Positions 9,590-27,898 of a DNA stretch of 64,000 nucleotides are shown one piece after another. Source of the DNA: Planctomycetota bacterium (GTDB taxonomy: Bacteria; Planctomycetota; UBA1135; GCA-002748355). The DNA is taken from assembly GCA_011321845.1 (NCBI GenBank), contig DROQ01000081.1, forward strand, positions 3,237-67,236, read 5' to 3'. The position numbers were made by a program, and so were the translations under genes. The notes under the pieces are model-generated. The model ran no database searches. It was not told the DNA's origin and saw only the letters and a program-made list of their open reading frames with translations. Each line of letters opens with the position of its first letter. Position 1 is the first letter of the stretch.

Positions 9590-9592
9590 GGC

Positions 9593-10264
9593 TCACGAAT
9601 CAGGGAGGAGGAGGGCGATGCTCTGGCCCGAGAAGAGGCCGGAGAGGGACCAGGTCTTGGCGAGTTGGAACCCCGCATCGGCGGCCTCCTCGCGCAGTTC
9701 TTGGACTTCGAGGAGGGTTCGCCGGCTCTGTCGCCCCCCTAGGGCGAGGCGGGTCCGGTGGAACCACTGCTTGGGACTGCCTCCATCCAGGAAACTGAGA
9801 ATGACCGGTCCGCGACAGACCCGGCGGAGTTGGGCGAGGATCTTTGCCCGGTCCTCCCGCTGGGGGAAGTGGTGGAGGAGCCTGAGACAGCAGCAGAGGT
9901 CTACAGCCTTGGAACGGAGGCCGAGGGCCCTGGCGTCGCTGCGGAAAAAGCCGAGGGATGGGTGTCCCGCTTCGGAGAGGCTCTGGTGGCAGAGGTGGAT
10001 CATGTGGGGGGAATGGTCGGCGCCCAGGTAACGGACGCCGAAGGAGGCGAGGAGGGGGGCGAAGCGTCCCGCTCCGCAGGGGATGTCCAAGAGAGTGGGA
10101 GTGGGAATGGCCGGAGCCAACTCTTGCAGGGCCGCCCGCATGGCTTTTTGGACCAGCCGCTTTTCCCGCCAGGAGCTGAGCCGCCGGATGGGGCTGCGCT
10201 CGAATTTTCCCCGGTACCGGAGCGCTTCTTGGGGGTCGAGGTGTCGACTGGAATAGCTGGCCAT
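9593..10264 (-). CDS. Class I SAM-dependent methyltransferase
   Basis: Motif I LLDIPCGAGRFAPLL, an acidic post-I residue (YLGADHS), and a motif II-like AVDLCCCLRLLHH. Confidence 0.8.
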   Translation of the reverse strand: MASYSSRHLDPQEALRYRGKFERSPIRRLSSWREKRLVQKAMRAALQELAPAIPTPTLLDIPCGAGRFAPLLASFGVRYLGADHSPHMIHLCHQSLSEAGHPSLGFFRSDARALGLRSKAVDLCCCLRLLHHFPQREDRAKILAQLRRVCRGPVILSFLDGGSPKQWFHRTRLALGGRQSRRTLLEVQELREEAADAGFQLAKTWSLSGLFSGQSIALLLPDS

Positions 10265-10290
10265 GCCGCCAGCTTATCCGGGGGGGCAAG

Positions 10291-10476
10291 CTAATGCCGC
10301 TTCGTCTTCTGGTACCTGGATTTCAAGTATTCCCCGGATTTGTTCCATTTGACCCCGCTCTTGGCGCGGCCATCGCCCATCTTCGCTTTGATGAGGTAGG
10401 CGGTCCCGGCCAGGGCGAGGATGGTGCCGATGGCGATCAGGATCTTGAGGCTCGGGTCTTTTTTGGAGTCAGGCAT
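10291..10476 (-). CDS. Small single-pass membrane protein (61 aa), Lys-rich tail
   Basis: One clear TM helix (LKILIAIGTILALAGTAYLI) followed by a basic tail. It fits the gap between the methyltransferase and ugd on the same strand. No recognisable family. Confidence 0.4.
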   Translation of the reverse strand: MPDSKKDPSLKILIAIGTILALAGTAYLIKAKMGDGRAKSGVKWNKSGEYLKSRYQKTKRH

Positions 10477-10513
10477 CGAAGCTTTCTCTCACCCGGGCCG
10501 AACATGGACCGGG

Positions 10514-11821
10514 TTATCCCTTATCGACACCCACCCCGTAGTAGGTGAAGCCCTGCTTCCGAACCTTCGATGGGGGGTAGATATTGCGGCCATCGAAGAT
10601 CACATTGCCGCGCATCTTCTTCTTGATGGCATCGAAGTCGGGGTTGCGGAATTCGCTCCACTCGGTGACGAGCACCAGTGCGTCCGCCCCATCGAGGGCG
10701 TCCATGGGCCGTTTCACATATTCGATGCGGTCCCCGAGGATCTTCTTCGCTTCCTGGATGGCCTCGGGGTCGGTGGCGGTGACGGTGGCTCCCCGATCCA
10801 GGAGGTTCTGGATGATGGTCAGGCTGGGAGCTTCGCGCATGTCATCGGTTCTCGGCTTGAACGAGAGGCCCCAAATGGCGAAATGCTTTCCTTTGAGATC
10901 TTTGTCGAAGTGTTGGTCGATCTTCTCGACCAAGTAAACCTTCTGCTTCTCGTTGACGCGCTCCACTGCGTCGAGAATCTCGAAACGATGTCCATGGTCC
11001 TCGGCTGTCTTCATGATGGCGCGGACGTCTTTGGGAAAGCAGGAGCCGCCGTACCCGACTCCGGCGAACAAAAAGGCGTAGCCGATCCGGTTGTCCGTTC
11101 CGATCCCCTCCCGAACCCGGGAGAAGTTGGCGCCGACCTTGTCGCAGATCTGGGCGATTTCGTTCATGAAGGAGATCCGGGTCGCCAGCATGGCGTTGGC
11201 CGCGTACTTGGTCAGTTCCGCGCTCTCGGGGTCCATGACGAGAATGGGCTTGCCCGTCCGGACGAAGGGGGCATACAGCTCCTTCATGATTTCGGTGGCC
11301 CGCGGGTCGTCGGCCCCGATGACGACCCGGTCGGGCTTCATGAAGTCCTCGATCGCGGTTCCTTCCTTGAGAAACTCGGGGTTGGAGACCACGTCGAAGG
11401 GGTGCTCGCTGTGTTTTTTGATCTCGGCCGCAACCTTGCGGGAGGTGCCGACCGGGACCGTGGACTTGTCCACGACGAGACGGTAACCGGTCATGTGGGT
11501 TCCGATACTCTCAGCCACCTTGAGGACATACTGGAGATCCGCGCTTCCGTCCTCACCGGGGGGGGTCCCCACCGCGATGAAGATCACCGTCGCGTCCTGG
11601 ATGGCCTTCTTGATGTCGGTCGTGAAGCGCAGACGCTCCTCCTCGGAGTTGCGCCGGATCAGCTCTTCGAGACCGGGTTCGTAGATGGGGACGATTCCGT
11701 GATTCAAGCCTTTGATCTTTTCGGCGTCGATGTCTACGCAGGCCACCTCATTGCCCGTCTCGGCAAAGCAGGTTCCCACAACGAGGCCGACATAACCGGT
11801 TCCAATTACAGCGATCTTCAT
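10514..11821 (-). CDS. ugd: UDP-glucose 6-dehydrogenase
   Basis: N-terminal Rossmann MKIAVIGTGYVGLV, catalytic GGSCFPKD, and full-length collinearity with the UDP-glucose/GDP-mannose dehydrogenase family. 435 aa. Confidence 0.92.
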   Translation of the reverse strand: MKIAVIGTGYVGLVVGTCFAETGNEVACVDIDAEKIKGLNHGIVPIYEPGLEELIRRNSEEERLRFTTDIKKAIQDATVIFIAVGTPPGEDGSADLQYVLKVAESIGTHMTGYRLVVDKSTVPVGTSRKVAAEIKKHSEHPFDVVSNPEFLKEGTAIEDFMKPDRVVIGADDPRATEIMKELYAPFVRTGKPILVMDPESAELTKYAANAMLATRISFMNEIAQICDKVGANFSRVREGIGTDNRIGYAFLFAGVGYGGSCFPKDVRAIMKTAEDHGHRFEILDAVERVNEKQKVYLVEKIDQHFDKDLKGKHFAIWGLSFKPRTDDMREAPSLTIIQNLLDRGATVTATDPEAIQEAKKILGDRIEYVKRPMDALDGADALVLVTEWSEFRNPDFDAIKKKMRGNVIFDGRNIYPPSKVRKQGFTYYGVGVDKG

Positions 11822-11921
11822 GTTGTTCGGATTCCTGGGGGGGTAAAGAGAGAGGTTGCTCCCTGAGGAAGGTTCGGTTTTCAGCCCGGGAAGGATAGCG
11901 GGGAGAGGGAAGGAAGGGAAG

Positions 11922-12920
11922 CTAGCGGCGATTCTGCGCCCTCCGGAAGGCGCGCCTGGCCTTCAAGCGTTCCCTCCTCTTTCTCATCCGGTGCAGAAGG
12001 TTCGCCCCCCATATGGCGGCTTTGAGATGGGGGGGGATGTAGACGCGCTTGGGAGAAAAAATCTTTTCCGGACTGGTGATGGCAGGGGTCGGCTTGCGCT
12101 CCAGGCGGAGCTGGAAGGGGGGGCGGAGGGGGTCGGGGCTGGTCTTGGCCCTGAGGAACATCTTTTGGATCAGGCTTGTATCCTTGTCGATCCAAAGATC
12201 GAATTCCCCTTCCGAATGGGAGAGCCCGGCCAGGGGATGCCCCTGAAAGAAGGCGGGGAAGCGAAAAACCCCCTGGATGTGGATCCGATCTCCTTCGAAG
12301 CTGTGGGTGAGGGGTTTGGAATCGGGATCCAGAACGGACTCCAGAAGGGGGCGGACCTCGAGGTAGCTGAGGTTGCTCCCGATCCCCAGGAGAGGAAAGC
12401 TGTCCTTGGGAAGAAAGGGGAGATCGATGGCGACCTTGTGCCTGGACCGGATCCAATAGCTGTTCCCGTCGGAGCCGAGGGTGATGCTGCCGAAGGGGCG
12501 GAAAATTTCGAGGGCGAAGGCTTTGTTGGGGCCGAAGTAGGCCTCGAAGGACCTCCGGATCCTGCGTCCACGGGGAGCGGCGGAAAAGCTTCCCTCGAAG
12601 TAATGGATCCCCTGGCGGCTCTTTTTGAGGGTGTTGGAGAGAAGTTCGGCCTCGAGGACTTGGGGGTCCCCCGAGAGGAAGAGGAACTTGCCAGCGAAGA
12701 GGATGGCGAGGACGCTCGCGGCAACAAGCAGAATCCTCTTGGCCAGGGGGATCGGGGCGGGAACGCTGGACTCGCGGATGGCGGCCAGAATGCGGTTGAT
12801 TCGTTCCTCTTTTTGGACCTTGCTCTCCTTGCTGGCGCGGAATCGAAGAAGCCCATGGACGAAGAGCTGCTTGGCTTCTTGCTGGATAGCGGCCAGGTCC
12901 TTTTTCTCCTGCTGGGTCAT
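11922..12920 (-). CDS. Putative anti-sigma factor / membrane-anchored periplasmic protein
   Basis: Its start ATG overlaps the ECF sigma stop (ATGA at 12917-12920). About 60 aa cytoplasmic N-terminus, one TM (ILLVAASVLAILFAG), and a ~240 aa extracytoplasmic domain. The call rests on position and topology only. Confidence 0.5.
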   Translation of the reverse strand: MTQQEKKDLAAIQQEAKQLFVHGLLRFRASKESKVQKEERINRILAAIRESSVPAPIPLAKRILLVAASVLAILFAGKFLFLSGDPQVLEAELLSNTLKKSRQGIHYFEGSFSAAPRGRRIRRSFEAYFGPNKAFALEIFRPFGSITLGSDGNSYWIRSRHKVAIDLPFLPKDSFPLLGIGSNLSYLEVRPLLESVLDPDSKPLTHSFEGDRIHIQGVFRFPAFFQGHPLAGLSHSEGEFDLWIDKDTSLIQKMFLRAKTSPDPLRPPFQLRLERKPTPAITSPEKIFSPKRVYIPPHLKAAIWGANLLHRMRKRRERLKARRAFRRAQNRR

Positions 12921-13522
12921 CCCTCACCTCTCAGGGTCTGCTCACCTCTCACGGTATATCGCACCGGCTCGATGCCCAGGGCCGAGAGTCTCTGCTGGAT
13001 ACAGTCCCCTAGCCAGGAGCGCCCGCGCTGAAGGATTTTTTTGACCCCTTCGCGGGTCCTGCCGAGGAACTCCGCGATCTGCCGGGTGTCCAGGTTTTCC
13101 TCGTAATGGAGGTCGATGATCCTTCGCTGGTGGTCGGGGAGCTTCTCCAGGCATTGCTCCAGGCTCTTGACCTGGTCCTCAAAATTGTCTCCCGGGGCCT
13201 GGTCCAGGGAGGAATAGAGGAGGGAAAGGTGGTCGATGATCTCCTCTCCGGGGAAGGCGTGCTTGTCGCGCTGGACTTTGCGGAAGTGGCTGCGGGCCAG
13301 GTTTTTCGCGATCCCCCGGAGCCATGGGCCGAAGGGGAGGGTGCGGTCATACTTGGAGAGATTCTTCCAGGCGATGAGGAAGGCTTCCTGGACGAGGTCG
13401 TTGACGCTCTCGGGGTCCGAGACCATGCTGCCGATGAAGGCTCGGAGGCGGCTCTCTTGTTCCCGGACGAGGATCTCGAAGAGTTCCGTCGCGTCAATAC
13501 CGGGTTTGGGGGGGGATGCCAT
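12917..13522 (-). CDS. ECF-type RNA polymerase sigma-70 family factor
   Basis: Region 2 (DLVQEAFLIAWKNLSKYD, PFGPWLRGIAKN) and region 4 HTH (LDTRQIAEFLGRTREGVKKILQRGRSWL). Start placed at ATG 13522 (MASPPKPG), which gives ~200 aa. The track ORF extends to 13612. Confidence 0.85.
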   Translation of the reverse strand: MASPPKPGIDATELFEILVREQESRLRAFIGSMVSDPESVNDLVQEAFLIAWKNLSKYDRTLPFGPWLRGIAKNLARSHFRKVQRDKHAFPGEEIIDHLSLLYSSLDQAPGDNFEDQVKSLEQCLEKLPDHQRRIIDLHYEENLDTRQIAEFLGRTREGVKKILQRGRSWLGDCIQQRLSALGIEPVRYTVRGEQTLRGEG

Positions 13523-13643
13523 GGCTGTCCTTGTCTTTCTCCCTGCTTTCGGGGACGGCGAATCTTCGAGAAATTCTTCTCGCCCATGTACCAGCAATCC
13601 ATTCTGGCCCAAATCCCCCTTATGGGCTAGCCTTCGGGGCCTG

Positions 13644-13720
13644 GGGCGATTAGCTCAGTTGGTTAGAGCATCTGCTTTACACGCAGAGGGTCGGGGGTTC
13701 GAATCCCTCATCGCCCACCA
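13644..13720 (+). tRNA. tRNA-Val (anticodon TAC), CCA encoded
   Basis: Hand-folded cloverleaf. Acceptor GGGCGAT/ATCGCCC, D arm GCTC..GAGC, anticodon stem TCTGC/GCAGA with loop TTTACAC, T arm GGGGG-TTCGAAT-CCCTC, then A-CCA. Confidence 0.9.
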
Positions 13721-13742: not shown

Positions 13743-13824
13743 CATAGCCATCCCATAGCCATCCCATAGCCATCCCATAGCTATCCCAGGAGTCCTTCCC
13801 GGAGTCCTTTCCGCAGTCCTCCCC
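13743..13824 (+). repeat. Two adjacent short tandem repeats (11 bp x4, then 12 bp x3) opening a C+T-rich tract
   Basis: CATAGCCATCC x4 at 13743-13786 (the last copy has one change). GGAGTCCTTCCC / GGAGTCCTTTCC / GCAGTCCTCCCC at 13789-13824. The + strand stays strongly pyrimidine-rich to about 13910. Confidence 0.85.
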
Positions 13825-14010: not shown

Positions 14011-14730
14011 ATGGCTGCAGAGCGCTGCCCCCAAGCGATGATTTTGGCCGGTGGGTTCGGGACGCGGCTTCAGCCCGCCCTCCAGGGTCTGCCCAAATGC
14101 CTGGCCCCTGTGGCAGGGCGTCCCTTTCTCTCCTACCTCCTCGACCGGCTCGCCGAAGCGGGCTGCAAGCGGGTCGTCCTCTGCACTGGCTACCTGGCCT
14201 CCCAGGTGGAGCAGGCTTTTGGCGATTCCTACTCCGGTATGACGCTGCAGTATTCCGTGGAGGATGGCCCTCTTGGAACGGCGGGGGCCGCCAGAAACGC
14301 CCTCCCCTTGATGGAGGGGGAGGAGTTCCTCCTCCTGAACGGGGATTCCTTCTGCCCCTGGGAAGCCCTCCCCTTCCTGGGAAACCCCTTGGACACGGCC
14401 CTGGCCTCCTTGCTTCTGGTGGAGGTCGATGATGTGCGGCGGTTTGGGACCGTCTCCCTCCAGGAGGACGGTCGGATCCTCCATTTCTTCGAAAAGGGGG
14501 TCAAAGGGGGGGCCGGCCTCATCAACGCAGGCGTCTACAGGATCCACCGCGATCTCCTGCTCCGGGTCCCCCGGGGCGAAAACCTTTCCCTGGAGAACCA
14601 GGTCTTTCCCAGCCTTGCCCGCGCGGGCCGGCTGACGGGGCAGGTCCAATACCTGCCGTTCATCGATATCGGAACGCCTGAGAGCTACGCCCAGGCCGAA
14701 TCCTTCTTCTCTCCGGAGCCCAGGGTATGA
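14011..14730 (+). CDS. hddC: Sugar-1-phosphate nucleotidyltransferase, D-glycero-alpha-D-manno-heptose-1-phosphate guanylyltransferase (HddC)-like
   Basis: N-terminal ILAGGFGTRL...P..LAPVAGRPFL signature and a LGTAGA block. About 240 aa from ATG 14011; the track ORF starts earlier, in the pyrimidine tract. It sits directly upstream of gmhB- and hddA-like genes. Confidence 0.75.
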   Translation: MAAERCPQAMILAGGFGTRLQPALQGLPKCLAPVAGRPFLSYLLDRLAEAGCKRVVLCTGYLASQVEQAFGDSYSGMTLQYSVEDGPLGTAGAARNALPLMEGEEFLLLNGDSFCPWEALPFLGNPLDTALASLLLVEVDDVRRFGTVSLQEDGRILHFFEKGVKGGAGLINAGVYRIHRDLLLRVPRGENLSLENQVFPSLARAGRLTGQVQYLPFIDIGTPESYAQAESFFSPEPRV

Positions 14731-15314
14731 ATCTCCCGAGCTGCATTGTTTTGGACCGCGACGGGACCTTGATCCACGAGCGGCACTATCTCTCCCATCC
14801 CGACCAGGTAGAGCTGCTCCCTGGAGTGCTGGAGGGCTTGAGCAGGATCCGCTCCCTTGGTCTTCGCCTGGTCGTCGTTACGAACCAGTCGGGGATCGGG
14901 AGGGGATATTTCTCCCCTGCGGATCTCGAGGCTGTGCATGATCGCCTCCACTCCCTCCTCGCCGAGGGGGGTGTGGAATTGGACGCGATCTACCACTGTC
15001 CCCACACCCCCGAAGAGACTTGTCCTTGCCGCAAGCCGGGGACCGGAATGATCGAGCAGGCCGGCAGAGACCTGGGCTTCGACCCCAAGAACTCGGTGGT
15101 GGTGGGGGACAAGCCCTGCGACATCCAACTCGGCAAGAATGTGGGGGCAGTCACCGCCCTCGTTCGGAGCGGTTATGGGGCGCGGCGGACAACCCTCGGT
15201 GGTTGCGAGCCCGATCTCGTCATCGATGGGATCGCGGATCTTGCGCTGATCCTGGCGGCTGCCCAGGGACAGCCCTCGGGGGCCCTCTCGGGGCCTGGTG
15301 GTGCCTGGTCATGA
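14727..15314 (+). CDS. gmhB: D-glycero-D-manno-heptose 1,7-bisphosphate phosphatase (HAD, histidinol-phosphatase-like)
   Basis: HAD motif I LDRDGTL, VVVTNQSGIGRGYF, the zinc-finger-like CPHxPxxxCxCRKP insert, and GDKxxD. ATGA overlap with hddC. Confidence 0.85.
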   Translation: MNLPSCIVLDRDGTLIHERHYLSHPDQVELLPGVLEGLSRIRSLGLRLVVVTNQSGIGRGYFSPADLEAVHDRLHSLLAEGGVELDAIYHCPHTPEETCPCRKPGTGMIEQAGRDLGFDPKNSVVVGDKPCDIQLGKNVGAVTALVRSGYGARRTTLGGCEPDLVIDGIADLALILAAAQGQPSGALSGPGGAWS

Positions 15315-16432
15315 TCATTTCCAGGACACCCTTTCGCATTTCCTTCTTCGGGGGTGGTACCGATTATCCCGAATGGTACAGGTTGCATGGAGGCAAGGTC
15401 CTCGCAACGACCATCGACAAGTACTGCTATCTTTCCTGCCGCTATTTCCCTCCATTCTTCGACTTCAAGTACAGAATCGTCTGGTCCCAGGTGGAGAACC
15501 GCAAGCAGCGGGAGGACATCGAACATCCCGTGGTGCGCGAGGCGCTGCAATTCCTGGGGATCGACCGTGGGATCGAGATCCACCATGTAGGGGATCTTCC
15601 CGCGCGGAGCGGCATGGGCTCTAGCTCGGCCTTTACGGTCGGGATCCTGCACGCTCTGCACGCGCTCGAAGGACGCATGGTGGGCAAGCGCCGTCTGATG
15701 AGGGAGGGCATCCACGTCGAGCAAAAGCTGCTGCGTGAGGTGGTCGGTTCCCAGGACCAGGTGTCGGCGGCCATGGGGGGGTTCAATCTCATCACCTTCG
15801 AAAAAAACGAGGAGATCGGGGTCCATCCCGTTCTCCTCCCCAAACCCAGGCTGGAGGAGTTGGAGGGGAGCCTCATGCTGTTTTACACCGGCATCCTTCG
15901 GACCGCGTCGACGGTGGCCTCGGCCTATGTGACGGATCTGGACGCCAAAAAGAGACAGCTCCGCATCCTCAAGGATTTGGTGGACGAGGCCATGGAGATC
16001 CTCACAAATGACCGGGGCCTGGATGAGTTCGGGGCCCTGCTGGACGAGTCCTGGCGCATCAAGAAGAGTCTGGGGGGAGGGATCAGCAACCCCGAGGTGG
16101 ACGGGCTTTACGAAAAGGCTCTCCAGGCGGGTGCCCTGGGAGGCAAACTGACGGGAGCGGGAGGGGGAGGCTTCCTCCTCTTCTTCGTTCCTCCCGCCAG
16201 GCAGGCCGCGGTCAAGGCCGCACTCAAGGATCTCGTCCATGTCCCCTTCAAGTTCGAGTCCTCGGGGACTCAGATCATCTTTCACGAATCCGAAGAGGAC
16301 TACGAGGAAGTGGAGCGCCTTATCGATTCCCAGGGTATCCGCGAATACCGGGAACTCGAAGACCTGGACCTCCTCCCATACGCCCCTGGGAGCAAGGTGA
16401 AGAGAATCCCGGAAACACAGAAGGTGGACTAG
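15311..16432 (+). CDS. hddA: GHMP-family sugar kinase, D-glycero-alpha-D-manno-heptose-7-phosphate kinase (HddA)-like
   Basis: RTPFRISFFGGGTDYPEW, GHMP motif PARSGMGSSSA, GSQDQVSAAMGGFN, and GAGGGGFLLFF. ATG 15311 overlaps the gmhB stop (ATGA). The track ORF's first ~97 aa are out of context. Confidence 0.8.
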   Translation: MIISRTPFRISFFGGGTDYPEWYRLHGGKVLATTIDKYCYLSCRYFPPFFDFKYRIVWSQVENRKQREDIEHPVVREALQFLGIDRGIEIHHVGDLPARSGMGSSSAFTVGILHALHALEGRMVGKRRLMREGIHVEQKLLREVVGSQDQVSAAMGGFNLITFEKNEEIGVHPVLLPKPRLEELEGSLMLFYTGILRTASTVASAYVTDLDAKKRQLRILKDLVDEAMEILTNDRGLDEFGALLDESWRIKKSLGGGISNPEVDGLYEKALQAGALGGKLTGAGGGGFLLFFVPPARQAAVKAALKDLVHVPFKFESSGTQIIFHESEEDYEEVERLIDSQGIREYRELEDLDLLPYAPGSKVKRIPETQKVD

Positions 16433-16436
16433 CGAA

Positions 16437-17384
16437 ATGATGGAAAACGCTCAAATCAAACCGGCCGAGGGTCTGGATCTCTACGAGAGGATGCTCCGGA
16501 TCCGCCTGCTCTCGGAGCATATTCTCGAGGTCTACCGGGACGACGTCATGGAGACCCCCGTTCATCTGACCCTGGGTCAGGAGGCGGTGGCTGTGGGGGT
16601 CTGCGCGCACCTGCGGGACGAGGACGTGCTCTCCCTCGGGCACCGGACCCACGCCGGCGCCCTCGCCAAGGGCCTCCCCCTGAAGTCCCTCCTCGCCGAA
16701 CTCTACGGTCGCAGCACCGGCTGCTCCGGCTCCTATGGCGGTTCCATGCATGTCTACGACCCGGAGCACGGCATTCACGGGTCTTCCGCCATTGTTGGAG
16801 GCAACATCGCCCTCGGCGTCGGGGCCGCCCTCTCCTTCAAACTCCAGTCCAAGGAAGGTGTCGCCGTTTCCATGTTCGGGGACGGTGCCTGCGATGCCGG
16901 AGTCTTTTGGGAGTCGATGAACTACGCGGCTCTTGCCGGCTTGCCGGTCCTCTTCCTTCTCGAGGACAACCAGCTCTCCAACGTCATGCCCAAGAGCAAG
17001 CATCTCTACCCCGATCCCCGTGCCATCGCCGCCAATTTTATGCCGACCTACTTCGCCGATGGAACCGACGCCATCTCGGTCTTCCTCTCCGCCAAGGAGG
17101 CGATCTCCGAGATTCGCCGGACCGGGCGCCCCGCCTTTCTCCACTGCCCCACCAAGCGCTGGATGAAGCACCAGGGGGTCGAGGAGGAGGACCTCCCTTT
17201 CATCCACATCGACCGGGAGAAGGATTGTCCCATCCAAAAACTCGAGTCCTTCCTCCTGGGTGCGCGCATGGCGACACCTGGAGAACTCAAGCAGGTTCGC
17301 GCCCATCTGGAAGAGGAGCTGGAGGCCGCGATCCACTACGCCCGGCAATCCCCCTATCCCCCTGTTCAAGCCTTGGAGGTCTGA
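16437..17384 (+). CDS. Thiamine-diphosphate-dependent dehydrogenase E1 component, alpha subunit
   Basis: E1-alpha collinearity. TPP-binding motif FGDGACDAGVFWESMNYAALAGLPVLFLLEDNQ (GDG...N). An SD-like GAAGGTGG lies ~10 nt upstream. Confidence 0.85.
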   Translation: MMENAQIKPAEGLDLYERMLRIRLLSEHILEVYRDDVMETPVHLTLGQEAVAVGVCAHLRDEDVLSLGHRTHAGALAKGLPLKSLLAELYGRSTGCSGSYGGSMHVYDPEHGIHGSSAIVGGNIALGVGAALSFKLQSKEGVAVSMFGDGACDAGVFWESMNYAALAGLPVLFLLEDNQLSNVMPKSKHLYPDPRAIAANFMPTYFADGTDAISVFLSAKEAISEIRRTGRPAFLHCPTKRWMKHQGVEEEDLPFIHIDREKDCPIQKLESFLLGARMATPGELKQVRAHLEEELEAAIHYARQSPYPPVQALEV

Positions 17385-17385
17385 G

Positions 17386-18414
17386 ATGCCTTGGAGCCGA
17401 TTCGAGAAGCAATGGTCCATCCAGGAGGAGGGACGGATCCTCAGTTACAAGGACGCGTTGCGCGAGGCCATCGACCAGGCCATGTGCCTCGATCCCAAGG
17501 TCTTCGCCATCGGACTCGACGCCGACGACTGCTACGGGGTCTATGGGAGCATGCTGAATCTCAGCCACCCCGAGCGGGTTCTGGGGACACCCATTTCCGA
17601 GAACGCCATGACCGGGGTCGCCCTCGGCGCCGCCCTCACAGGGATGCGACCCATCCACATCCACATGCGGGTGGATTTCCTCCCGGTGGCCATGGACCAG
17701 ATCACCAACTATGTCTCCAAGTGGAAGGCCATGTTCGGAGGCAAACCCAAGGTCCCTCTCGTGATTCGCGCCGTCGTCGGGCGGGGCTGGGGCTGCGGAG
17801 CCCAGCACTCCCAGACCCTGCATGGGATGTTCGCGCACCTCCCCGGGCTCAGCGTGGTGACGCCGGCCACACCGAGAGACGCCAAGGGCCTCCTCCTCCA
17901 GGCGATTGCCTTGGACGAGCCCGTCCTCTTTCTCGAGCATCGCTGGCTCTACAAGAACGAGGGGGCAGTCCCCGAGGAGATGTACACCATCCCCCTGGGC
18001 AAGGGGCAATATCTCAGGCGGGGGGATTCCCTGACCATCGTGGCTCCTTCCCTTGCGGCGATTCACTCTCTCCAAGCCTGCGAGGAGCACGACCTGGATG
18101 TGGACCTCATCGATCCTAGGACGATCAAACCCCTCGACAGGGAGTTGATCCTGGACTCCGTGCGCAGGACGGGCCGGCTGCTGGTCGTGGACTATGACTC
18201 CCCAGTCTGCGGCTTCGCCTCCGAAGTCCTCGCCCTCGTGGCCGAGGAGGCCCCCGAAGCGCTCCTTGCCGGGGCGCAAAAGATGACCTTTCCCGATGTC
18301 CCCATGCCCGCGAGCGGCGTCCTCGAGCGACGCTACTATCCTGACCCCGATCGCATCGCCGCCAAGGCCAAGGCGATGATCTCCAGGGTCAAGGGAGAAG
18401 GAGCCCTGGTATGA
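17386..18414 (+). CDS. Thiamine-diphosphate-dependent dehydrogenase E1 component, beta subunit (transketolase-like Pyr + C-terminal domains)
   Basis: ATG 17386 lies 1 nt after the alpha stop. Contains GTPISENAMTGVALGAALTGMRP, HSQ and IDPRTIKPLD blocks typical of E1-beta. Confidence 0.85.
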   Translation: MPWSRFEKQWSIQEEGRILSYKDALREAIDQAMCLDPKVFAIGLDADDCYGVYGSMLNLSHPERVLGTPISENAMTGVALGAALTGMRPIHIHMRVDFLPVAMDQITNYVSKWKAMFGGKPKVPLVIRAVVGRGWGCGAQHSQTLHGMFAHLPGLSVVTPATPRDAKGLLLQAIALDEPVLFLEHRWLYKNEGAVPEEMYTIPLGKGQYLRRGDSLTIVAPSLAAIHSLQACEEHDLDVDLIDPRTIKPLDRELILDSVRRTGRLLVVDYDSPVCGFASEVLALVAEEAPEALLAGAQKMTFPDVPMPASGVLERRYYPDPDRIAAKAKAMISRVKGEGALV

Positions 18415-19919
18415 GCACAGCATTGGATGTCCTGATCGTGAATCCCGGCGGTAGGGACAAGGCCTACCAGAAGCTGGGCGGCGAACTCGCGGCGATGGAG
18501 CCCCCCATCTGGGCGGGGCTCCTCGCAAGTTTTCTGCGCGGCAAGGGCCTGCGGGTCGAGATCCTCGACACCGACGCCCTGGGCTTGGGGCCCGAGGCGG
18601 CGAGCAAGTGGATCGAGGAGCGGGACCCTCTCCTGACAGCGGTGGTGGTCTACGGTCACAACCCCAACGCCTCCACCTGGGTCATGCCCGGGGTCCGTTC
18701 CCTCTGCGGGGCGATCAAAGCCCGGAATCGAAACCGCCGGCTCCTTCTCCTGGGGGGGCATGTCTCAGCCCTCCCCGAACGAACCCTGCGCGAGGAGGAG
18801 GCCGACTATGTCTGCGACGGGGAGGGGACCTACACCCTCCTGGATCTTGTGCGGGAGTTGAAGAGCGGGTCGCCCGATCTCCACAGGGTCCGAGGAATCC
18901 TCTTCTTCCAGGACGGCGAAATCCAGCGCAGCGAACCTGCGCCCTTTGTCGTCGACCTGGACCGGGAGATGCCGGGAATGGCGTGGGACCTGCTCCCCAT
19001 GGACCGCTACCGGGCACACAACTGGCACTGCTTCGGGGAGGAGGAACGCAGTCCCTACGCGGCCATCTACACCACCCTGGGCTGCCCCTTCCGCTGCAGC
19101 TTCTGCTGCATCCAGGCTCCCTTCAAACAGGGGGAAAAAGCCCTGGGCTACAAACCGCAGGTCAACAGCTACCGAAAGTGGAGTCCTCAGCGGATCGGCC
19201 GGCAGATCGAGATCCTCGTGGAGAATTACGGCGTGCGGCATCTCAAGATCGCGGACGAGATCTTCCTGCTCGACAAGGAGCACGTGGAAGGAGTCTGCGA
19301 CGAGATCCTCCGCCGGGGTTACGACCTGAACATCTGGGCCTACGCCCGGGTGGACACAGTGCGGGACCAGGCCTTGCTCCATAAGATGCGCCGGGCGGGG
19401 TTCCGCTGGCTCGCCCTGGGGATCGAGTCGGCCAACAGGGAGGTTCGCAAGGATGTTTCCAAAGGATACAGAGAGGAGAAAATCGAAGAGACCGTTCAGA
19501 AGATCCAGGCCGCGGGCATCCACATCATCGGAAACTACATCTTCGGTCTGCCCGAGGACGATCTGGACTCGATGCGGGAGACCCTGGAGCTGGCCAAGTC
19601 CCTGAACACCGAATACGCCAATTTCAACTCGGCCATGGCCTACCCTGGCTCCGCCCTCTACCGGGAGGCCTTGGAGCGGGGCTGGCCGCTGCCAAAAACT
19701 TGGGATGGGTATTCGCAGCACTCCAAGGCGAGTCTCCCTCTTCCGACGCGACACATCTCCTCGCGAGAGGTCCTGGCGTTTCGGGACCAGGCGTTTCGGG
19801 AGTACTTCGAGCGGGAGGAATACTTGGAGCGGGTGGAAAAGGCCTTTGGGCCCAAGGTCCGGGAACAGGTCCGGGAGATGACCAGCAAGTCCCTCGAGAG
19901 GGACCTGCTGGAAACCTGA
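18411..19919 (+). CDS. B12-binding-domain radical SAM enzyme (class B rSAM, methyltransferase-like)
   Basis: N-terminal Rossmann-like B12-binding region (VLIVNPGG..., LLLLGGHVSALP). The radical SAM cluster motif CPFRCSFC lies ~230 aa in. ATGA overlap with E1-beta. 502 aa. Confidence 0.85.
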   Translation: MSTALDVLIVNPGGRDKAYQKLGGELAAMEPPIWAGLLASFLRGKGLRVEILDTDALGLGPEAASKWIEERDPLLTAVVVYGHNPNASTWVMPGVRSLCGAIKARNRNRRLLLLGGHVSALPERTLREEEADYVCDGEGTYTLLDLVRELKSGSPDLHRVRGILFFQDGEIQRSEPAPFVVDLDREMPGMAWDLLPMDRYRAHNWHCFGEEERSPYAAIYTTLGCPFRCSFCCIQAPFKQGEKALGYKPQVNSYRKWSPQRIGRQIEILVENYGVRHLKIADEIFLLDKEHVEGVCDEILRRGYDLNIWAYARVDTVRDQALLHKMRRAGFRWLALGIESANREVRKDVSKGYREEKIEETVQKIQAAGIHIIGNYIFGLPEDDLDSMRETLELAKSLNTEYANFNSAMAYPGSALYREALERGWPLPKTWDGYSQHSKASLPLPTRHISSREVLAFRDQAFREYFEREEYLERVEKAFGPKVREQVREMTSKSLERDLLET

Positions 19920-19977
19920 GTTCTCTCCTTTCAGGAGAGCGGGTTCTCCCTCGTTGCCGGTTTTTTCGCCGGTTCTC

Positions 19978-20506: not shown

Positions 20507-21748
20507 TCAGGGATAGGAGATCTCGTACAGGTGCACTTCATAGGGGCCGAACTGGTCGTACGCACGCCCAAAACGTAGGACAAGTTGGCGGTTCTCGTCA
20601 AGGACCGTGGCTTGCCTGGTCCCGCGGGAGCCGCGAATGGAGATCGCGACCTTGCTGGGCTGGGAGCTGATGTTGGCCGCGAAGAGATAGAGCTTGGACC
20701 CCAGGAGCCGGGTGGTCCACTTCAGCCTGGTCTTCTTGTTGCTTGGTTTCAGGCTCGCGCCCTTCTTCTTGGGGGGGGTGTTGAGGACTTTGGCGAGGGA
20801 TTGGACGCGTTTGTTGATCTTGGAGATGGCGGCGCTCATGGTCTTGTCCTGGAGCATGGCCGCTTCACGGAATCTCGGTTTGAACTCGTGGCAGAAATAG
20901 CCGAAGCCCTTGACTCCCGAGATGAGGGCGATCCAGACCAGGCTGCGGACTTGGGCCGGAGTCGGTTTGACCTTGGGGTTGTTGATGTGGGTGCATTCGA
21001 TCCAGGTGAAGGTGGGTTTTTTGTTCTTTCCCGCCTTCAGGAGGCGTTCGACCCCGATGGAGATGTATTCGAGGCGTCCGGAGACATGGGGGTAGGGCGA
21101 GGTGACAGGATAGATGTCGAAGGAAAGGATGTCGGCTCCTTTGGCGTAGAGAGGGTAGTCCTCCAGTTTGCCGGTCCGGCTCCCCCGCCCCTTGAAGGAC
21201 TCGTTCGCGATCCCCTGTCCGAAGTTGATAAAGATGGGGCGCGTCTTGTCCTTGGCCCGCATTTTCCGGTAGTCGTCCACGATCCTGTCGGGAGGGATGG
21301 GAGGGCCGTAGCCTGCCCCCTTGATGGCTTGGGCATTGTCGGGCTCGTCCTTCTGGAGCCAGCCCACGATCTGCTTGCGATTCTTGTCTTTGAGGGCAAG
21401 GGCGTTTTGCTGGCAGATGACGGGCATTTTGGCCTTGGCGAGAGCCGCGAGCTGCGCGCTGGTGGGGCCTTTCCAAAGTCCGATGTAGAGGTTGATCCCG
21501 ATGGCTTTGTAGGCAACGGCTCTGCGGGGATCCTGGAGCCAGACGGCGATGGGGAAGGAATCCGTCCGCTTGGAGGGACCGTTCTTCCAGGCTTTCCAAG
21601 GGGACTCCGGCCGGTTCCTTTGCACTTCGGGAATCCTGTGGGCAGGATGGGAGCGGCGTGGGAGGCGGGGCTCGAGGCGGGGCTCGGCGACGGTGGAGAC
21701 TTGGGACAGGCCTGAAAGGGCCAAGGCGAAGATGGTGAATAAGAGCAT
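20507..21748 (-). CDS. Secreted hypothetical protein, possibly TIM-barrel glycoside-hydrolase-like
   Basis: Signal peptide MLLFTIFALALSGLSQVS from ATG 21748. The GWLQKDEPDN and FDIYP patterns recall GH clan-A beta-4/beta-7 regions. No firm family assignment. Confidence 0.45.
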   Translation of the reverse strand: MLLFTIFALALSGLSQVSTVAEPRLEPRLPRRSHPAHRIPEVQRNRPESPWKAWKNGPSKRTDSFPIAVWLQDPRRAVAYKAIGINLYIGLWKGPTSAQLAALAKAKMPVICQQNALALKDKNRKQIVGWLQKDEPDNAQAIKGAGYGPPIPPDRIVDDYRKMRAKDKTRPIFINFGQGIANESFKGRGSRTGKLEDYPLYAKGADILSFDIYPVTSPYPHVSGRLEYISIGVERLLKAGKNKKPTFTWIECTHINNPKVKPTPAQVRSLVWIALISGVKGFGYFCHEFKPRFREAAMLQDKTMSAAISKINKRVQSLAKVLNTPPKKKGASLKPSNKKTRLKWTTRLLGSKLYLFAANISSQPSKVAISIRGSRGTRQATVLDENRQLVLRFGRAYDQFGPYEVHLYEISYP

Positions 21749-23546
21749 GGCCGAAGGATACGGGATTTGCGTTCCCGATGGGAGCGCTCTCACTCCTTGG
21801 GCCAGGCTCGGGCTCTCGGGGCTCCTGGTCCTTTTGCTCTTCCTCCTCTGGTATCCCGCCCTGGGAGGGAACTTTGTCTTCGATGACGAGGTGCTGATTG
21901 TTCGAAACCCTCTTGTCACGGGCCCGCTGGACCTGGGGGGGATCTTCGGGGGCAGGTTCCTTGGCGCTTCGGTGGGGCAGGAGGCGGTTCCCTACTGGCG
22001 CCCTCTCTCCGTTCTTCTGTTCTGGGGTCTCTGGCATCTGGGGGCTGGGGCGCCCTGGGTTTTTCATGCCTTCGCCTTGGGGTTGCATCTCCTGAGCGCT
22101 GTCCTGGGGATGAGGTTGTTCTTTCGCTGGGGACTGGTCCCTTGGCTCGCCTTTTTGGCGGCTCTTGGCTTTGGGGCCCACCCCAGCCAGGTAGAAGGGG
22201 TGGCTTGGGTTTCGGCGGGCAGCTGGCCGCTCATGGCTCTCCTGCTCCTGGGCTTTCTCCATGCATGGGATCGGTTCAGGAGGAAAGGCGCGCCATTTTG
22301 GGGGATGCTGGGGGGGGTGGCCCTTGGGCTTGCCCTGCTCGCCCAAGAGGCCGCAGTCCTCGGGTTCCTGCTCGCTGGGCTCCTGGAGTTTTTCGCGCCG
22401 GGGGATTCCGAGCGACGCTCGGGAGCATGGAAGCGGCTGGCCTGCTTGGGGGGAGTCCTCCTCCTTTGGTTTCTCGCGAGGAGCTGGGTCCTGGGAAAGG
22501 TCCCGACTCCGGAGCAGGGGCCGGGCCGGGAGGTCGGAGAGGCCTTGGTTCTCCGGCTCCACATCCTCGGGGTCCATCTCAGGGACCTTGTTCTCCCCCG
22601 GGCTCCGAATGTGCTGCGACCGCTGCCGCTGCATCTCTTCGGCCCTGGTTCGGGGCTGGGGCTTTCGCTCGCCTGGGCGGGGGGCTTCCTTGCCCTCCTC
22701 CTCGGCCTCCTGTTTTGGAGGAGGGGCCGGAGGCTGCGCCTTGGGCGCGGGCTCTTTTGGATCGCTTGCTGCCTGGCTCCGCTGCTATGGATCGGCGAGG
22801 GGACTGGGGTGACTCCGCTTGCGGACCGCTACCACGCCTTCGCGGCGTTGGGCCTGGTCCTGTTCCTCGCGGATCTCCGGAGCCTGCCCTGGGGGGGGTG
22901 GCTGGGTCCGTTTCTTTTGTCGGCTCTTGCGCTGGGCTCAGCGTGGATCTCCCGCGCTGCCCTGCCGCCCTGGAAGGACGCGAGGAGTTTTTGGGAGCAT
23001 GCCTGCCTCCAAAACAAGGACTCTGTCCTGGCGGCCTATTCGTTGGGGCGGCAGCGCCTCATGGATTTCGAACGGGGAGGGAAGCCCCGGGACCTGGAGG
23101 GGGCGGCCGAGGAATTGGACCGGGCTTTGGCGCTGCGGCGGAGTTTGGGGAGTTCGGGCAAAGCGGAGAAGGTTCAAGAGTTGGCGATCGAAACGGCCAG
23201 GGCCTGGGTGCAGCTCACTCGGGCGATGCGATCCAAGCGGGTAGCCCCGCGGGGGGTGCGGGAGGCTTTCGAGCGGATTCTCGAGAAAGCACCGAGGAGC
23301 GCCGACGCCTGGGTGGGCCTCGGGGTGTCCCTGGTCCTCGAGCAGCGGGTCGGGGACGCCGAGCAGGCCTTCCGGCGGGCGGTGGACCTGGACCCAGCAC
23401 ATCCCCAAGCGCGATTCAACCTGGCCAGGCTCCTCTACTCCCGGGGTGATCGGAGGGAGGCCGCCGAACAGCTGAGAGAGGTTCTGAGGCTCCAACCGGG
23501 CAACCGCCCCGCCCGGGACCTTTGGCGCAGGCTCAAGGGCTGGTAA
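21747..23546 (+). CDS. TMTC-like (DUF1736-type) polytopic membrane protein with C-terminal TPR repeats; putative GT-C O-mannosyltransferase-like
   Basis: After TM1 comes the motif GGNFVFDDEVLIVRNPLV, which resembles the FVFDD..I..N motif of TMTC/TPR-GT-C proteins. About 10 further helices follow, then ~200 aa of TPR-like repeats (AWVGLGVSLVLEQRVGDAEQAFRRAVDLDPAHPQARFNLARLLY). The start is either ATG 21747 or ATG 21732. Confidence 0.65.
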   Translation: MAEGYGICVPDGSALTPWARLGLSGLLVLLLFLLWYPALGGNFVFDDEVLIVRNPLVTGPLDLGGIFGGRFLGASVGQEAVPYWRPLSVLLFWGLWHLGAGAPWVFHAFALGLHLLSAVLGMRLFFRWGLVPWLAFLAALGFGAHPSQVEGVAWVSAGSWPLMALLLLGFLHAWDRFRRKGAPFWGMLGGVALGLALLAQEAAVLGFLLAGLLEFFAPGDSERRSGAWKRLACLGGVLLLWFLARSWVLGKVPTPEQGPGREVGEALVLRLHILGVHLRDLVLPRAPNVLRPLPLHLFGPGSGLGLSLAWAGGFLALLLGLLFWRRGRRLRLGRGLFWIACCLAPLLWIGEGTGVTPLADRYHAFAALGLVLFLADLRSLPWGGWLGPFLLSALALGSAWISRAALPPWKDARSFWEHACLQNKDSVLAAYSLGRQRLMDFERGGKPRDLEGAAEELDRALALRRSLGSSGKAEKVQELAIETARAWVQLTRAMRSKRVAPRGVREAFERILEKAPRSADAWVGLGVSLVLEQRVGDAEQAFRRAVDLDPAHPQARFNLARLLYSRGDRREAAEQLREVLRLQPGNRPARDLWRRLKGW

Positions 23547-23571: not shown

Positions 23572-24435
23572 TTGCCCATGTTTTCCTCTCTGGGTCGCTT
23601 GCTGCTGTTGGCCTTGGCTCTTCTTGCCGCATGCGGGAAGAGCGGTGAGAACGCCCCATCGATTCTTGTCTTCGCCGGCTCCGCCAGTCGCCCGGCCCTC
23701 CTCCAGGCCGCCAAGGTTTTCGAGCAACGGAGCGGGACCGAGGTGGACGTCGTCTTCGGAGGCTCGGGGCAGGTGCTCTCCCAGATGATCCTCGCCAAAA
23801 AGGGGGATCTCTACTTTCCCGGCTCCTCCGATTACATGGAGATCGCCAAGAAGAAGGGTGTAGTCCTTGCCGAGAGCGAGACCCGCCTGGCCTATCTGGT
23901 CCCGGCCATCGCCGTCGCCAGGGGGAATCCCAAAGGCGTCCAGAACCTTGAGGATCTCCTGCGAGAGGATGTCCGCGTGGCCATCGCCAATCCCGAGTCG
24001 GTCTGTGTGGGTTCCTACGCGGTCGAGATCCTCGAAAAGAGCCTCTCCGCCGCCCAGTTGGCCGCGCTGAGAAAAAAACTCGTGACCTACACGGGGAGCT
24101 GCGCCAAGACCGCTTCCGCCGTCTCGCTGGGAGCAGCCGACGCGGTGATGGGTTGGAGGATCTTCGCCTCCTGGGATCCCAAGCGGATCGAGGTGGTCCC
24201 CCTGCACCAGGAACAGATCGTCCGGGTGGGATACCTCCCCGTCGCCCTTTCCCGGTTCGGGAGGAACCCCGAGGGAGGACGCGCCTTCATCCGTTTCCTG
24301 GCTTCCCGAGAGGGGCGTGACATCTTTCGAGCCGCCGGTTATTTCATGACAGAGAGAGAAGCCTTCGATTGGATCGGATCCAGGAAACCGGTCGGGGGAC
24401 TCTATCGGCTGCCAGAGGATTGGATCTCTCGTTGA
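23572..24435 (+). CDS. ABC transporter substrate-binding lipoprotein, molybdate/tungstate (ModA/WtpA)-like
   Basis: Lipobox LLAA-C. Class II PBP pattern with LVFAGSASRPAL...VVFGGSGQVLSQ...GDLYFPGSSDYM and VAIANPESVCVGSYA. Followed by a permease and an ATPase with a TOBE-like tail. Confidence 0.7.
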   Translation: MPMFSSLGRLLLLALALLAACGKSGENAPSILVFAGSASRPALLQAAKVFEQRSGTEVDVVFGGSGQVLSQMILAKKGDLYFPGSSDYMEIAKKKGVVLAESETRLAYLVPAIAVARGNPKGVQNLEDLLREDVRVAIANPESVCVGSYAVEILEKSLSAAQLAALRKKLVTYTGSCAKTASAVSLGAADAVMGWRIFASWDPKRIEVVPLHQEQIVRVGYLPVALSRFGRNPEGGRAFIRFLASREGRDIFRAAGYFMTEREAFDWIGSRKPVGGLYRLPEDWISR

Positions 24436-27787: not shown

Positions 27788-27898
27788 AATGCACTCTTTC
27801 CCTTTCTGTGGGTTCTCCCCCTGGGATAGGATCCATGCCCCCCTTGAGCAGGGGAAGGTCCACCCGATGACTCTTTTTCGTCCAGACTCCGAAAACAA

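Follow-up and report, generated by a model that had tools for sequence, protein, structure and literature searches.

What sugar could a bacterium be building with an operon in which three genes for heptose activation precede a stand-alone pair of thiamine diphosphate (ThDP)-dependent E1 subunits and a radical S-adenosylmethionine (SAM) protein? The operon in question lies on the + strand of a Planctomycetota contig (DROQ01000081.1 of assembly GCA_011321845.1), of which we analysed the 64,000 nucleotides from position 3,237 to position 67,236 (hereafter the window; coordinates count from its first nucleotide). It consists of six intact, co-directional and tightly packed open reading frames (ORFs) between 14011 and 19919. 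We consider it reasonably probable that these genes encode the central steps of a route to a modified GDP-heptose for a cell-envelope glycan. Related cassettes occur in hundreds of bacterial species and one archaeon, where they most likely build a seven-carbon surface sugar that carries a C2 branch and is further modified by radical chemistry. Each kind of enzyme, as well as the pathway logic (nucleotide-sugar tailoring with ThDP-dependent branching), is already known; the combination appears to be new. The original prediction knew of no characterised pathway of this composition, and this still stands: we found no paper on heptose genes together with an E1 pair and a B12-type radical SAM protein, with the proviso that the searchable literature is incomplete and absence from it is not proof.

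The six-gene operon

Gene 1 (14011..14730) is predicted from Pfam, NCBIfam and PDB matches to encode an HddC-type sugar-1-phosphate nucleotidyltransferase, probably a guanylyltransferase; gene 2 (14727..15314), from NCBIfam and its Zn motif, a GmhB-type HAD-IIIA phosphatase (heptose 1,7-bisphosphate 7-phosphatase); and gene 3 (15311..16432), from Pfam, PDB and synteny, a GHMP sugar kinase of the HddA/WcbL type (anomeric kinase, heptose 7-phosphate). The second half of the operon comprises a ThDP-binding E1 alpha subunit of the alphaKADH2 type, which we propose to be a sugar C2-branching carboligase (gene 4, 16437..17384; Pfam, NCBIfam, PDB and synteny), an E1 beta subunit with pyrimidine-binding and C-terminal domains (gene 5, 17386..18414; Pfam, NCBIfam and PDB) and a radical SAM protein with an N-terminal B12-binding-like Rossmann domain (gene 6, 18411..19919; Pfam, NCBIfam and an AlphaFold2 (AF2) model). 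In Pfam terms the series reads NTP_transferase, HAD (Hydrolase_like/HAD_2), GHMP_kinases_N+C, E1_dh, Transket_pyr+Transketolase_C and B12-binding+Radical_SAM. The junctions and signature motifs on which the original prediction was built are all present. Start and stop codons overlap as ATGA at 14727, 15311 and 18411, and the remaining gaps measure 4 nt (16433-16436) and 1 nt (17385). The translations contain the Zn-binding CxHx(n)CxC motif of gene 2 (CPHTPEETCPCRKP, pattern CPHxPxxxCxCRKP), GGGTD, PARSGMGSSSA and GAGGGGF in gene 3, GDG...EDNQ in gene 4 and CPFRCSFC in gene 6. The longest ORF of gene 1 begins at 13909; a start at 14011 gives 239 aa, the length called in the relative L089.

Two relatives at 83-84% identity, L089 and L090, have an operon synteny identical to that of the window. 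Compared with L089 (84% identity), dN/dS is 0.04-0.09 for all six genes, at a dS near saturation, a sign of strong purifying selection on each of them. In L090 (5837-8030; 83% identity) only parts of the nucleotidyltransferase (163 aa) and of the GHMP kinase (244 aa, C-terminal domain only) were called, and a short antisense ORF separates them; the E1 pair and the radical SAM gene of that locus are intact. The fragments could be due to frameshifts or errors of assembly, or mark a beginning decay of the activation genes.

A cassette shared by many phyla

How widely is this gene company kept? For the radical SAM gene, 593 species-representative genomes were pattern-positive (the best 80 matches being full-length, at about 53-60% identity), and its proteins form more than 120 clusters at >=57% identity. 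The carriers belong to about 19 phylum-level groups and almost all hold the gene beside the same kinase and a thiamine-dependent enzyme. They include Planctomycetota (with Kuenenia and Brocadiaceae), Cyanobacteria, Acidobacteriota, Chloroflexota, Nitrospirota, Myxococcota, Binatia, Omnitrophota, Verrucomicrobiota, Poribacteria, Elusimicrobiota, Methylomirabilis, Spirochaetales, Zixibacteria and the archaeon Ca. Methanoperedens; in Azospirillum and Solidesulfovibrio magneticus RS-1 the gene is borne on a plasmid. We surveyed 56 well-flanked loci by tblastn and hidden Markov models (HMMs), in a census built on contigs of metagenome-assembled genomes (MAGs), for gene classes within 9 kb of the radical SAM gene. 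Orthologs of gene 3 (GHMP kinase, 56-70% identity) were found in 52 of these loci and a ThDP enzyme in at least 52, next to a short-chain dehydrogenase/reductase (SDR) in 51, a gene annotated 'DegT' in 43 and a nucleotidyltransferase in at least 40. The ORF-based HMM census under-counts E1 and nucleotidyltransferase genes at overlapping ORFs, and its numbers, checked against the tblastn table, are lower bounds. In the relatives, then, the radical SAM gene is kept beside sugar genes, and the original prediction stands up to a check that it had itself named as able to refute it.

The commonest arrangement, which we call the full cassette, comprises in order an SDR, a nucleotidyltransferase with or without a HAD part, a GmhA-like SIS gene, the GHMP kinase, a Gmd-like SDR, E1 alpha, E1 beta, the 'DegT' gene, in some cases a NUDIX gene, and the radical SAM gene. 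The 'DegT' product was rejected as an aminotransferase because a His, aligned with ColD His188, replaces the catalytic Lys and the closest PDB entry is ColD (2GMS, E 4e-50). ColD is the GDP-4-keto-6-deoxymannose 3-dehydratase. One SDR of the full cassettes is Gmd-like and others are annotated as GDP-L-fucose synthase; with the ColD-like gene they point to GDP-linked 4-keto-3,6-dideoxy chemistry, and a 4-keto-3,6-dideoxy sugar is the acceptor type of yersiniose biosynthesis (PMC9306805).

Three unrelated ThDP architectures share one slot of the cassette. Most loci have the E1 pair; two Chloroflexota loci and Methanoperedens (L008, L064 and L086) have an acetolactate synthase (ALS)/YerE-type enzyme in its place. 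In a Nitrospira MAG (L035:7996-9970) and a Methylomirabilis MAG (L065:7301-9136) a split transketolase, divided into Transketolase_N and Transket_pyr+Transketolase_C, lies directly upstream of the radical SAM gene. Branching of keto-sugars has been shown for YerE types (lipopolysaccharide, LPS) and for alphaKADH2 E1 pairs (antibiotics; KbDH in vitro) (PMC12247030, PMC9306805), and has been proposed for split transketolases (miharamycin) (PMC12247030). Among the sugar-branching ThDP enzymes collected in a review of 2025 are about 120 clusters of the E1 type, as well as 13 split transketolases that all come from Streptomycetes (PMC12247030).

Some single loci deserve a description of their own. 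The archaeal cassette (L086; Ca. Methanoperedens JAPZAO010000029.1, 4140-13814) holds an ALS-type ThDP enzyme, the radical SAM gene (56% identity), a GHMP kinase, a nucleotidyltransferase, a DegT-like gene, a SIS gene and a HAD gene, which suggests interdomain transfer or contamination of the MAG bin. Solidesulfovibrio magneticus RS-1, a cultured and sequenced strain, carries its cassette on plasmid pDMC1 (L092; 22514-35407 of the record, with the cassette at 24342-33320) in the order family 2 glycosyltransferase (GT2), GT2, radical SAM, NUDIX, kinase, E1 alpha, E1 beta, SDR resembling GDP-fucose synthase (GFS-like), DegT, SDR, nucleotidyltransferase and PMT-like glycosyltransferase, with IS66 elements adjoining. 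The cultured Azospirillum lipoferum 4B has on its plasmid p6 (L091; 20.2-24.9 kb) only the GFS-like SDR, the radical SAM gene, the kinase, a NUDIX gene and a gene for a 1127-aa protein without Pfam domain.

Genes 1-3 and the identity of the sugar

That genes 1-3 are of the HddC/GmhB/HddA type, as originally predicted, is largely supported by our comparisons. Gene 1 (Pfam NTP_transferase, 92 bits) scores below cutoff with the NCBIfam models for mannose-1-phosphate guanylyltransferase (174 bits, cutoff 440) and HddC (NF049965; 142 bits, cutoff 300), and its closest PDB entry is Yersinia HddC (6JQ8/5XHW, E 5e-36). Gene 2 falls just short of the GmhB model PRK08942 (172.8 bits, cutoff 178) and of TIGR00213 (126.7 bits, cutoff 149.6); in many relatives the GmhB-type phosphatase is fused to the nucleotidyltransferase. 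Gene 3 reaches 138 bits with HddA NF049969 (cutoff 600), and its top four PDB matches, ranging to E 4.5e-33, are all heptose kinases, including 3K85 (E 2.5e-40), Burkholderia WcbL (4USM) and 4N3O. GmhA-like SIS genes, which the window lacks, are frequent in the orthologous cassettes; that of L005 scores 195.8 bits with TIGR00441 (cutoff 209).

An alternative would have the kinase and the transferase (re)activate another sugar, for example a branched or hexose-derived one freed by the NUDIX protein, on the way to a yersiniose-like octose. We regard this as quite unlikely. It draws on the HddA and HddC scores far under cutoff, on the NUDIX gene that recurs beside the kinase and the radical SAM gene, and on the loci that we call type III, which hold a separate SIS/nucleotidyltransferase-HAD/GHMP set while a kinase like that of the window (56-59% identity) adjoins the radical SAM gene and has neither a HAD nor a SIS partner. 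Against it, a GmhB-type phosphatase, an enzyme needed only for a bisphosphate intermediate, flanks the kinase or is coupled to it here as in most loci; the frequency of GmhA-like genes and the heptose enzymes among the nearest solved relatives also argue for heptose.

The same alternative could appeal to a residue of the Kuenenia S-layer. A Ca. Kuenenia stuttgartiensis MAG (L079, 4593-13285) has a full cassette, and the S-layer O-glycan of Kuenenia contains an unidentified residue of 174.09 Da, for which a dimethyl-deoxyhexose was proposed (PMC5088730). This mass corresponds to C8H14O4, and a yersiniose-type branched octose and a C-methyl-dideoxyheptose are isobaric with the dimethyl-deoxyhexose. 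A product of heptose plus C2 would have another mass, 204 Da in its 3,6-dideoxy form. The cassette is a candidate gene set for the 174-Da unit, to be taken as a lead only.

Two further loci bear on the number of sugars made. L006 (14580-20532) and L043 (16359-21005) hold, separately from the cassette, a set of SIS, nucleotidyltransferase-HAD, SDR, cupin, second GHMP kinase (37-38% identity), SDR and ribulose-phosphate 3-epimerase genes, and glycan clusters of this type may make two different heptose-derived sugars.

The E1 pair

Genes 4 and 5 are adjacent, 1 nt apart, and encode an E1 alpha subunit with the ThDP motif GDG...N and an E1 beta subunit. Could they simply be the E1 component of an ordinary pyruvate or acetoin dehydrogenase, with E2 and E3 encoded elsewhere and with the sugar genes as incidental neighbours? 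The top families are those of pyruvate dehydrogenase (PDH) E1 alpha and beta. Gene 4 matches Pfam E1_dh (125 bits), TIGR03182 (229.5 bits) and human PDH E1 alpha (E 1.4e-40); gene 5 matches Pfam Transket_pyr and Transketolase_C, PRK09212 (260.6 bits), PRK11892 (234 bits) and PDB 1IK6 (E 2e-57). The catalytic histidines are kept in both subunits, and a gene of the lipoate/biotin ligase family is present at 51409-52386. The pair thus resembles the mitochondrial/alphaproteobacterial PDH E1 type, yet both subunits stay under the curated cutoffs (393.85 for TIGR03182, 321 for PRK09212, 454 for PRK11892), as do the E1s of other cassette types. A scan of about 50 large ORFs across the window bore out the earlier statement that it encodes no E2, E3 or lipoyl domain, which the genome beyond the window may encode. 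Moreover, the pair stays linked to the kinase and the radical SAM gene in about 19 phylum-level groups, and the E1 subclade of a locus varies with whether it has the ColD-like dehydratase. Since a YerE-type enzyme or a split transketolase takes over the position of the pair in some relatives, and all three are linked to keto-sugar branching, a catabolic role is very unlikely, and we give almost no credence to an ordinary dehydrogenase E1.

The linkage to sugar genes across phyla and the enzymes that take the same slot support the pair as a sugar enzyme. The original prediction had likewise cited a precedent for E1 pairs in sugar branching. The class does exist, and was understated: it is recognised as alphaKADH2 and in-vitro data are available for KbDH (PMC12247030). 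Genes for a keto-sugar acceptor (SDR, dehydratase) beside the E1 pair are missing from the window; they are present in full cassettes and in sister loci of the window's own type.

The radical SAM protein

Gene 6 had been described as a class-B (cobalamin) radical SAM protein, of the type that methylates unactivated carbons. Its architecture agrees with the class: the cluster-binding CxxxCxxC motif is CPFRCSFC, with CPFxCSFCC invariant in 28 orthologs, and Pfam detects B12-binding (PF02310, 50.1 bits, cutoff 32.1) and Radical_SAM (70.8 bits). The methylase part fared less well, methylase being just one option of several. NCBIfam has no model for this family; all methylase families score <=90 bits, far under cutoff, and the top profiles are the non-methylases HpnJ (151.6 bits, cutoff 577.6) and BchE (134 bits, cutoff 481). 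PDB sequence searches gave only remote matches (<=53 bits) to MgmA, CysS, AprD4 (E 3.5e-11) and OxsB, which are uninformative on the reaction. We found no sequence criterion for true cobalamin binding in the literature (PMC13331322, PMC12931638). The AF2 model (pLDDT 86) has as its nearest fold AprD4 bound to an aminosugar substrate (TMq 0.70, TMt 0.77), while the TM score to the cobalamin enzymes CysS, TsrM, OxsB, MgmA and TokK is 0.60-0.66.

Which reaction might then be expected? The subfamily is highly conserved and, if the proposed pathway holds, probably acts on a GDP-sugar. Because the orthologs stay about 57% identical, they probably perform the same reaction in minimal, full, YerE-type and transketolase-type cassettes. 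The ketone is already supplied in full cassettes, which speaks mildly against a keto-generating and for a tailoring role. C-methylation on the one hand, and deoxygenation or rearrangement of the AprD4 type on the other, each have a real, if clearly less than even, chance of being the radical step; C-C ring formation and some further kind of reaction are both rather unlikely, and to the same degree.

If the protein were an AprD4-like 1,2-diol dehydratase, the window could be self-contained: GDP-heptose would be converted to a deoxy-keto-heptose (e.g. 3-deoxy-4-keto) that the E1 pair then acetylates, with no need for an outside oxidoreductase. We take this as a possible but distinctly minor alternative. 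In its favour are the fold match to AprD4 with a sugar substrate, the appearance of AprD4 in sequence searches (NCBIfam profile, 56 bits) and the lack of a keto-forming SDR in the window. In addition, the radical SAM gene of the type-III loci L059, L072 and L081 adjoins or overlaps the gene for a GDP-fucose-synthase-like SDR, and loci without a ThDP enzyme keep exactly this SDR with the radical SAM gene, which fits a dehydratase-reductase pair such as AprD4/AprD3 of apramycin C3' deoxygenation. AprD4 shares the B12-like N-terminal domain and the sugar-diol substrate class; it differs in sequence (about 19% identity), in acting on a pseudodisaccharide and no nucleotide sugar, and in not using cobalamin. 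On the other side, full cassettes already make a 3,6-dideoxy-4-keto sugar with their Gmd- and ColD-like enzymes, yet keep the radical SAM gene at 55-60% identity, and a Gmd-like SDR is present in sister loci of the window's type. The TM scores of cobalamin methylases are only a little lower than that of AprD4, which is closest in length and favoured by this, and the HpnJ and BchE profiles score far above that of AprD4. The C-methylases GenK, GenD1 and Fom3 have the same domain architecture as gene 6 and are not close to it in sequence. Fom3 acts on a nucleotide-activated hydroxyethyl group.

HpnJ and BchE bring up a third chemistry, in which the radical SAM protein would join the C2 branch to the side chain of the heptose and so complete a carbocycle. 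HpnJ, which takes part in hopanoid cyclitol ether formation, is believed to have a sugar ring as its substrate, and caryose, a 4,8-cyclo-3,9-dideoxy-nonose, can be drawn as a 4-C-branched heptose with a further bond between its branch carbon and C7. The top two profiles are those of HpnJ, genetically linked to the conversion of a sugar to a cyclopentitol, and of the ring-forming BchE, and the carbon count (C7 + C2 = C9) is that of caryose, whose biosynthesis is stated to be unknown (PMC9092360). However, the scores are only about a quarter of the family cutoffs, no hpn (hopanoid) genes were found near the radical SAM gene, the context lacks chlorophyll genes as well, and full cassettes that include a 4,6-dehydratase should yield a 6-deoxy sugar, unlike caryose. 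The proposal is one of carbon counting and general chemistry, and an HpnJ/BchE-kind cyclase giving a caryose-type carbocyclic nonose would be a long shot.

The minimal variant of the window

The window represents a minimal type of cassette (nucleotidyltransferase, HAD, GHMP kinase, E1 alpha, E1 beta, radical SAM) that lacks the ColD-like gene and the SDR. A neighbour-joining tree places the radical SAM proteins of this type in one monophyletic group. The corresponding E1 subclade (alpha 55-59%, beta 64-68% identity) occurs only in loci without ColD (8/8); E1 alpha of ColD-containing loci is 33-43% identical to that of the window. By these comparisons the minimal type is a coherent lineage and no decayed cluster. 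More distant loci of the type have a conserved GT2(-GT4) glycosyltransferase directly after the radical SAM gene (47-79% identity), and L001, L009, L046 and L078 have, downstream of this, genes for a cupin epimerase and a Gmd-like SDR (65-79% identity). None of these three follows the radical SAM gene within reach in the window (64 kb), L089 or L090. The six genes had been presented as a whole unit; the operon is real, and at the same time a reduced version of a larger cassette, of which members of the sub-lineage keep the glycosyltransferase, the cupin epimerase and the Gmd-like SDR downstream.

As the earlier reading had stated, GmhA and a keto-forming enzyme are missing: among the ~50 large ORFs scanned across the window we found no gmhA/SIS, SDR or DegT gene. 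The simplest reading is that the 4-keto intermediate of this lineage is made by an SDR encoded elsewhere. An acceptor of the GDP-4-keto(-6-deoxy)heptose kind, instead of a 3,6-dideoxy sugar, would explain the distinct E1 subclade, and with no ColD-like 3-dehydratase or reductases in the minimal variant the product should keep its 3-hydroxyl.

A proposed pathway

On the reading that we prefer, a modified GDP-heptose, the isomerase GmhA would be encoded elsewhere in the genome. By homology, the HddA-like kinase would phosphorylate O-1 of D-glycero-D-manno-heptose 7-phosphate, the GmhB-like phosphatase would remove the 7-phosphate and the HddC-like transferase would form GDP-heptose. A Gmd/WcbK-like SDR, located outside the window as judged from its presence in sister cassettes, would convert this to a 4-keto(-6-deoxy) intermediate. 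The E1 alpha/beta pair, working without E2 and E3 as a ThDP carboligase, would then decarboxylate pyruvate and place the C2 unit on the sugar ketone, a step suggested by synteny, enzyme replacement and precedent. The resulting C-acetyl or 1-hydroxyethyl branch would make a nine-carbon branched sugar, on which the radical SAM protein would perform one more reaction in the GDP-linked state.

Several observations weigh against this pathway. Its product has so far been observed in no organism. None of the six proteins attains an NCBIfam equivalog cutoff, and all substrates are accordingly assigned by resemblance to families. The window lacks gmhA, a keto-forming SDR and an adjacent glycosyltransferase, so the pathway as written depends on unseen genes. 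The second complete heptose gene set beside the cassette in L006 and L043 means that the cassette kinase could act on a different sugar. In Azospirillum L091 and Acidobacteriota L047 the radical SAM gene, kinase, NUDIX gene and GFS-like SDR stand with no ThDP enzyme nearby, and the radical SAM step is therefore not strictly dependent on the branch. Finally, the E1 subunits have kept the histidines aligned to human alpha-His263 and in the beta motif 'AQHSQ'; human alpha-His263 and the beta 'HSQ' histidine are what we take to be the lipoamide-acylation residues of E1. This does not separate the pair from complex-bound E1s, and as a test it is non-discriminating, carboligases being free to keep both residues.

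Comparison with known systems

The closest parallel to the full cassettes is the pathway to yersiniose A in Yersinia pseudotuberculosis (4,6-dehydratase, 3-dehydrase, YerE and YerF), with which they share 4,6-dehydration, 3-deoxygenation, ThDP-dependent C2 addition from pyruvate at the C4 ketone and reduction; cassettes L008, L064 and L086 even use a YerE-like ALS-type enzyme. In the cassettes, however, the carrier is apparently GDP instead of CDP, the sugar heptose instead of glucose and the 3-dehydratase ColD-like instead of E1/E3, and a radical SAM step is added; the window differs further in its E1 heterodimer and its lack of a 3-dehydratase. The alphaKADH2 pairs of kibdelomycin (KbDH alpha/beta), aldgamycin, paulomycin, avilamycin and trioxacarcin are stand-alone E1 alpha/beta proteins among deoxysugar genes, as here, and use pyruvate as the source of the acetaldehyde equivalent that they add to a keto-sugar (PMC12247030, PMC4753412). 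They act on TDP-deoxyhexoses in secondary-metabolite clusters of Actinobacteria, whereas the present pairs belong to envelope-glycan loci of many phyla and to heptose, and we liken the two by description, not by sequence comparison.

Genes 1-3 match best the GDP-heptose routes to capsules and S-layers (GmhA/HddA/GmhB/HddC; Burkholderia WcbL). The cupin epimerase and Gmd-like SDR of the sister minimal-type loci recall the 6-deoxyheptose route of Campylobacter jejuni, in which the dehydratase WcbK/DdahA, the cupin epimerase Cj1430 and the reductase Cj1428 act in GDP-heptose tailoring. Known tailoring of GDP-heptose ends at epimerisation and reduction; the cassette would add a carbon branch and a radical SAM step, and to our knowledge no described GDP-heptose route does either.

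Operon boundaries and neighbouring genes

On its left the operon is bounded by a tRNA-Val(TAC) gene (13644..13720, + strand; ARAGORN), which stands outside the pathway. The spacer of 290 nt between it and gene 1 is repeat-rich: two short tandem arrays found by Tandem Repeats Finder lie next to each other at 13743..13824, one of 11 nt (CATAGCCATCC, 4.2 copies) and one of 12 nt (TCCCGGAGTCCT, 3.3 copies), and mark a probable promoter region, in which a scan for sigma-70-like promoters found none. Terminator-like hairpins directly after the last stop codon (19938..19973, + strand; a consensus match in a pattern scan) probably end the operon, and beyond them lies a convergent cytochrome c gene. 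A tRNA-linked island was considered and rejected because the GC content is unremarkable and both flanks are kept in L089 and L090.

Divergent from the operon, and likewise kept in L089 and L090, is a cluster at 6074-13612 with all but one gene on the - strand: an extracytoplasmic function (ECF) sigma factor (12917-13612), a 332-aa protein without Pfam match that is probably an anti-sigma factor (11922-12920), a UDP-glucose dehydrogenase (10514-11821), a methyltransferase (9593-10264), a Kdo/WaaP-like kinase (8936-9589), a GT87 glycosyltransferase (7650-8939) and, on the + strand, an FG-GAP repeat protein (6074-7666). This cluster may be a second envelope-glycan module under ECF control. A UbiA-family prenyltransferase gene (1779-2819) overlaps one for a PMT_2/GT-C-like membrane protein (2783-4174); taken with the GT87 gene, the two resemble polyprenyl-phosphate-sugar-dependent periplasmic glycosylation systems. 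The BPL_LplA_LipB (lipoate/biotin protein ligase family) gene lies 31 kb from the E1 pair on the - strand, and its ORF overlaps about 290 nt of the 5' end of a 959-aa ORF with GT2 and tetratricopeptide repeat (TPR) domains (52094-54973, +), probably through an over-long start call. Four large ORFs with coding-like GC content at third codon positions gave zero Pfam matches: 20507-21919 (-), 38130-39578 (+), 44598-45710 (+) and 55729-57255 (-).

What the cassette would mean

If the proposed pathway is true, many bacteria across phyla carry an undescribed surface sugar that is branched, radical-modified and of higher carbon number. The set would include anammox bacteria, Nitrospira, Methylomirabilis, cyanobacteria, Azospirillum, a magnetotactic relative of Desulfovibrio and one Methanoperedens archaeon. 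Cultured carriers exist, among them Floridaenema fluviatile BLCC-F154 besides Solidesulfovibrio magneticus RS-1 and Azospirillum lipoferum 4B, which makes the idea directly testable. The cassette would also define a new and very conserved radical SAM subfamily, offer a natural three-way comparison of ThDP carboligase architectures that do one job, and provide a candidate gene set for residues that glycoproteomics has left without identity. Should ThDP-dependent C2 addition to heptose be followed by an HpnJ/BchE-like C-C bond, an outcome to which we attach very little weight, the product would be a caryose-type sugar of nine carbons, carbocyclic or bicyclic, a kind to which no genes have yet been assigned; such sugars would then be common in the envelopes of about 19 phylum-level groups, and the enzyme would be the first radical SAM cyclase on a nucleotide sugar. 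On the reading that we prefer, ThDP-dependent branching of sugars would no longer be confined to a few LPS antigens and actinomycete antibiotics; it would also serve a widespread primary pathway of the cell envelope, built on heptose.

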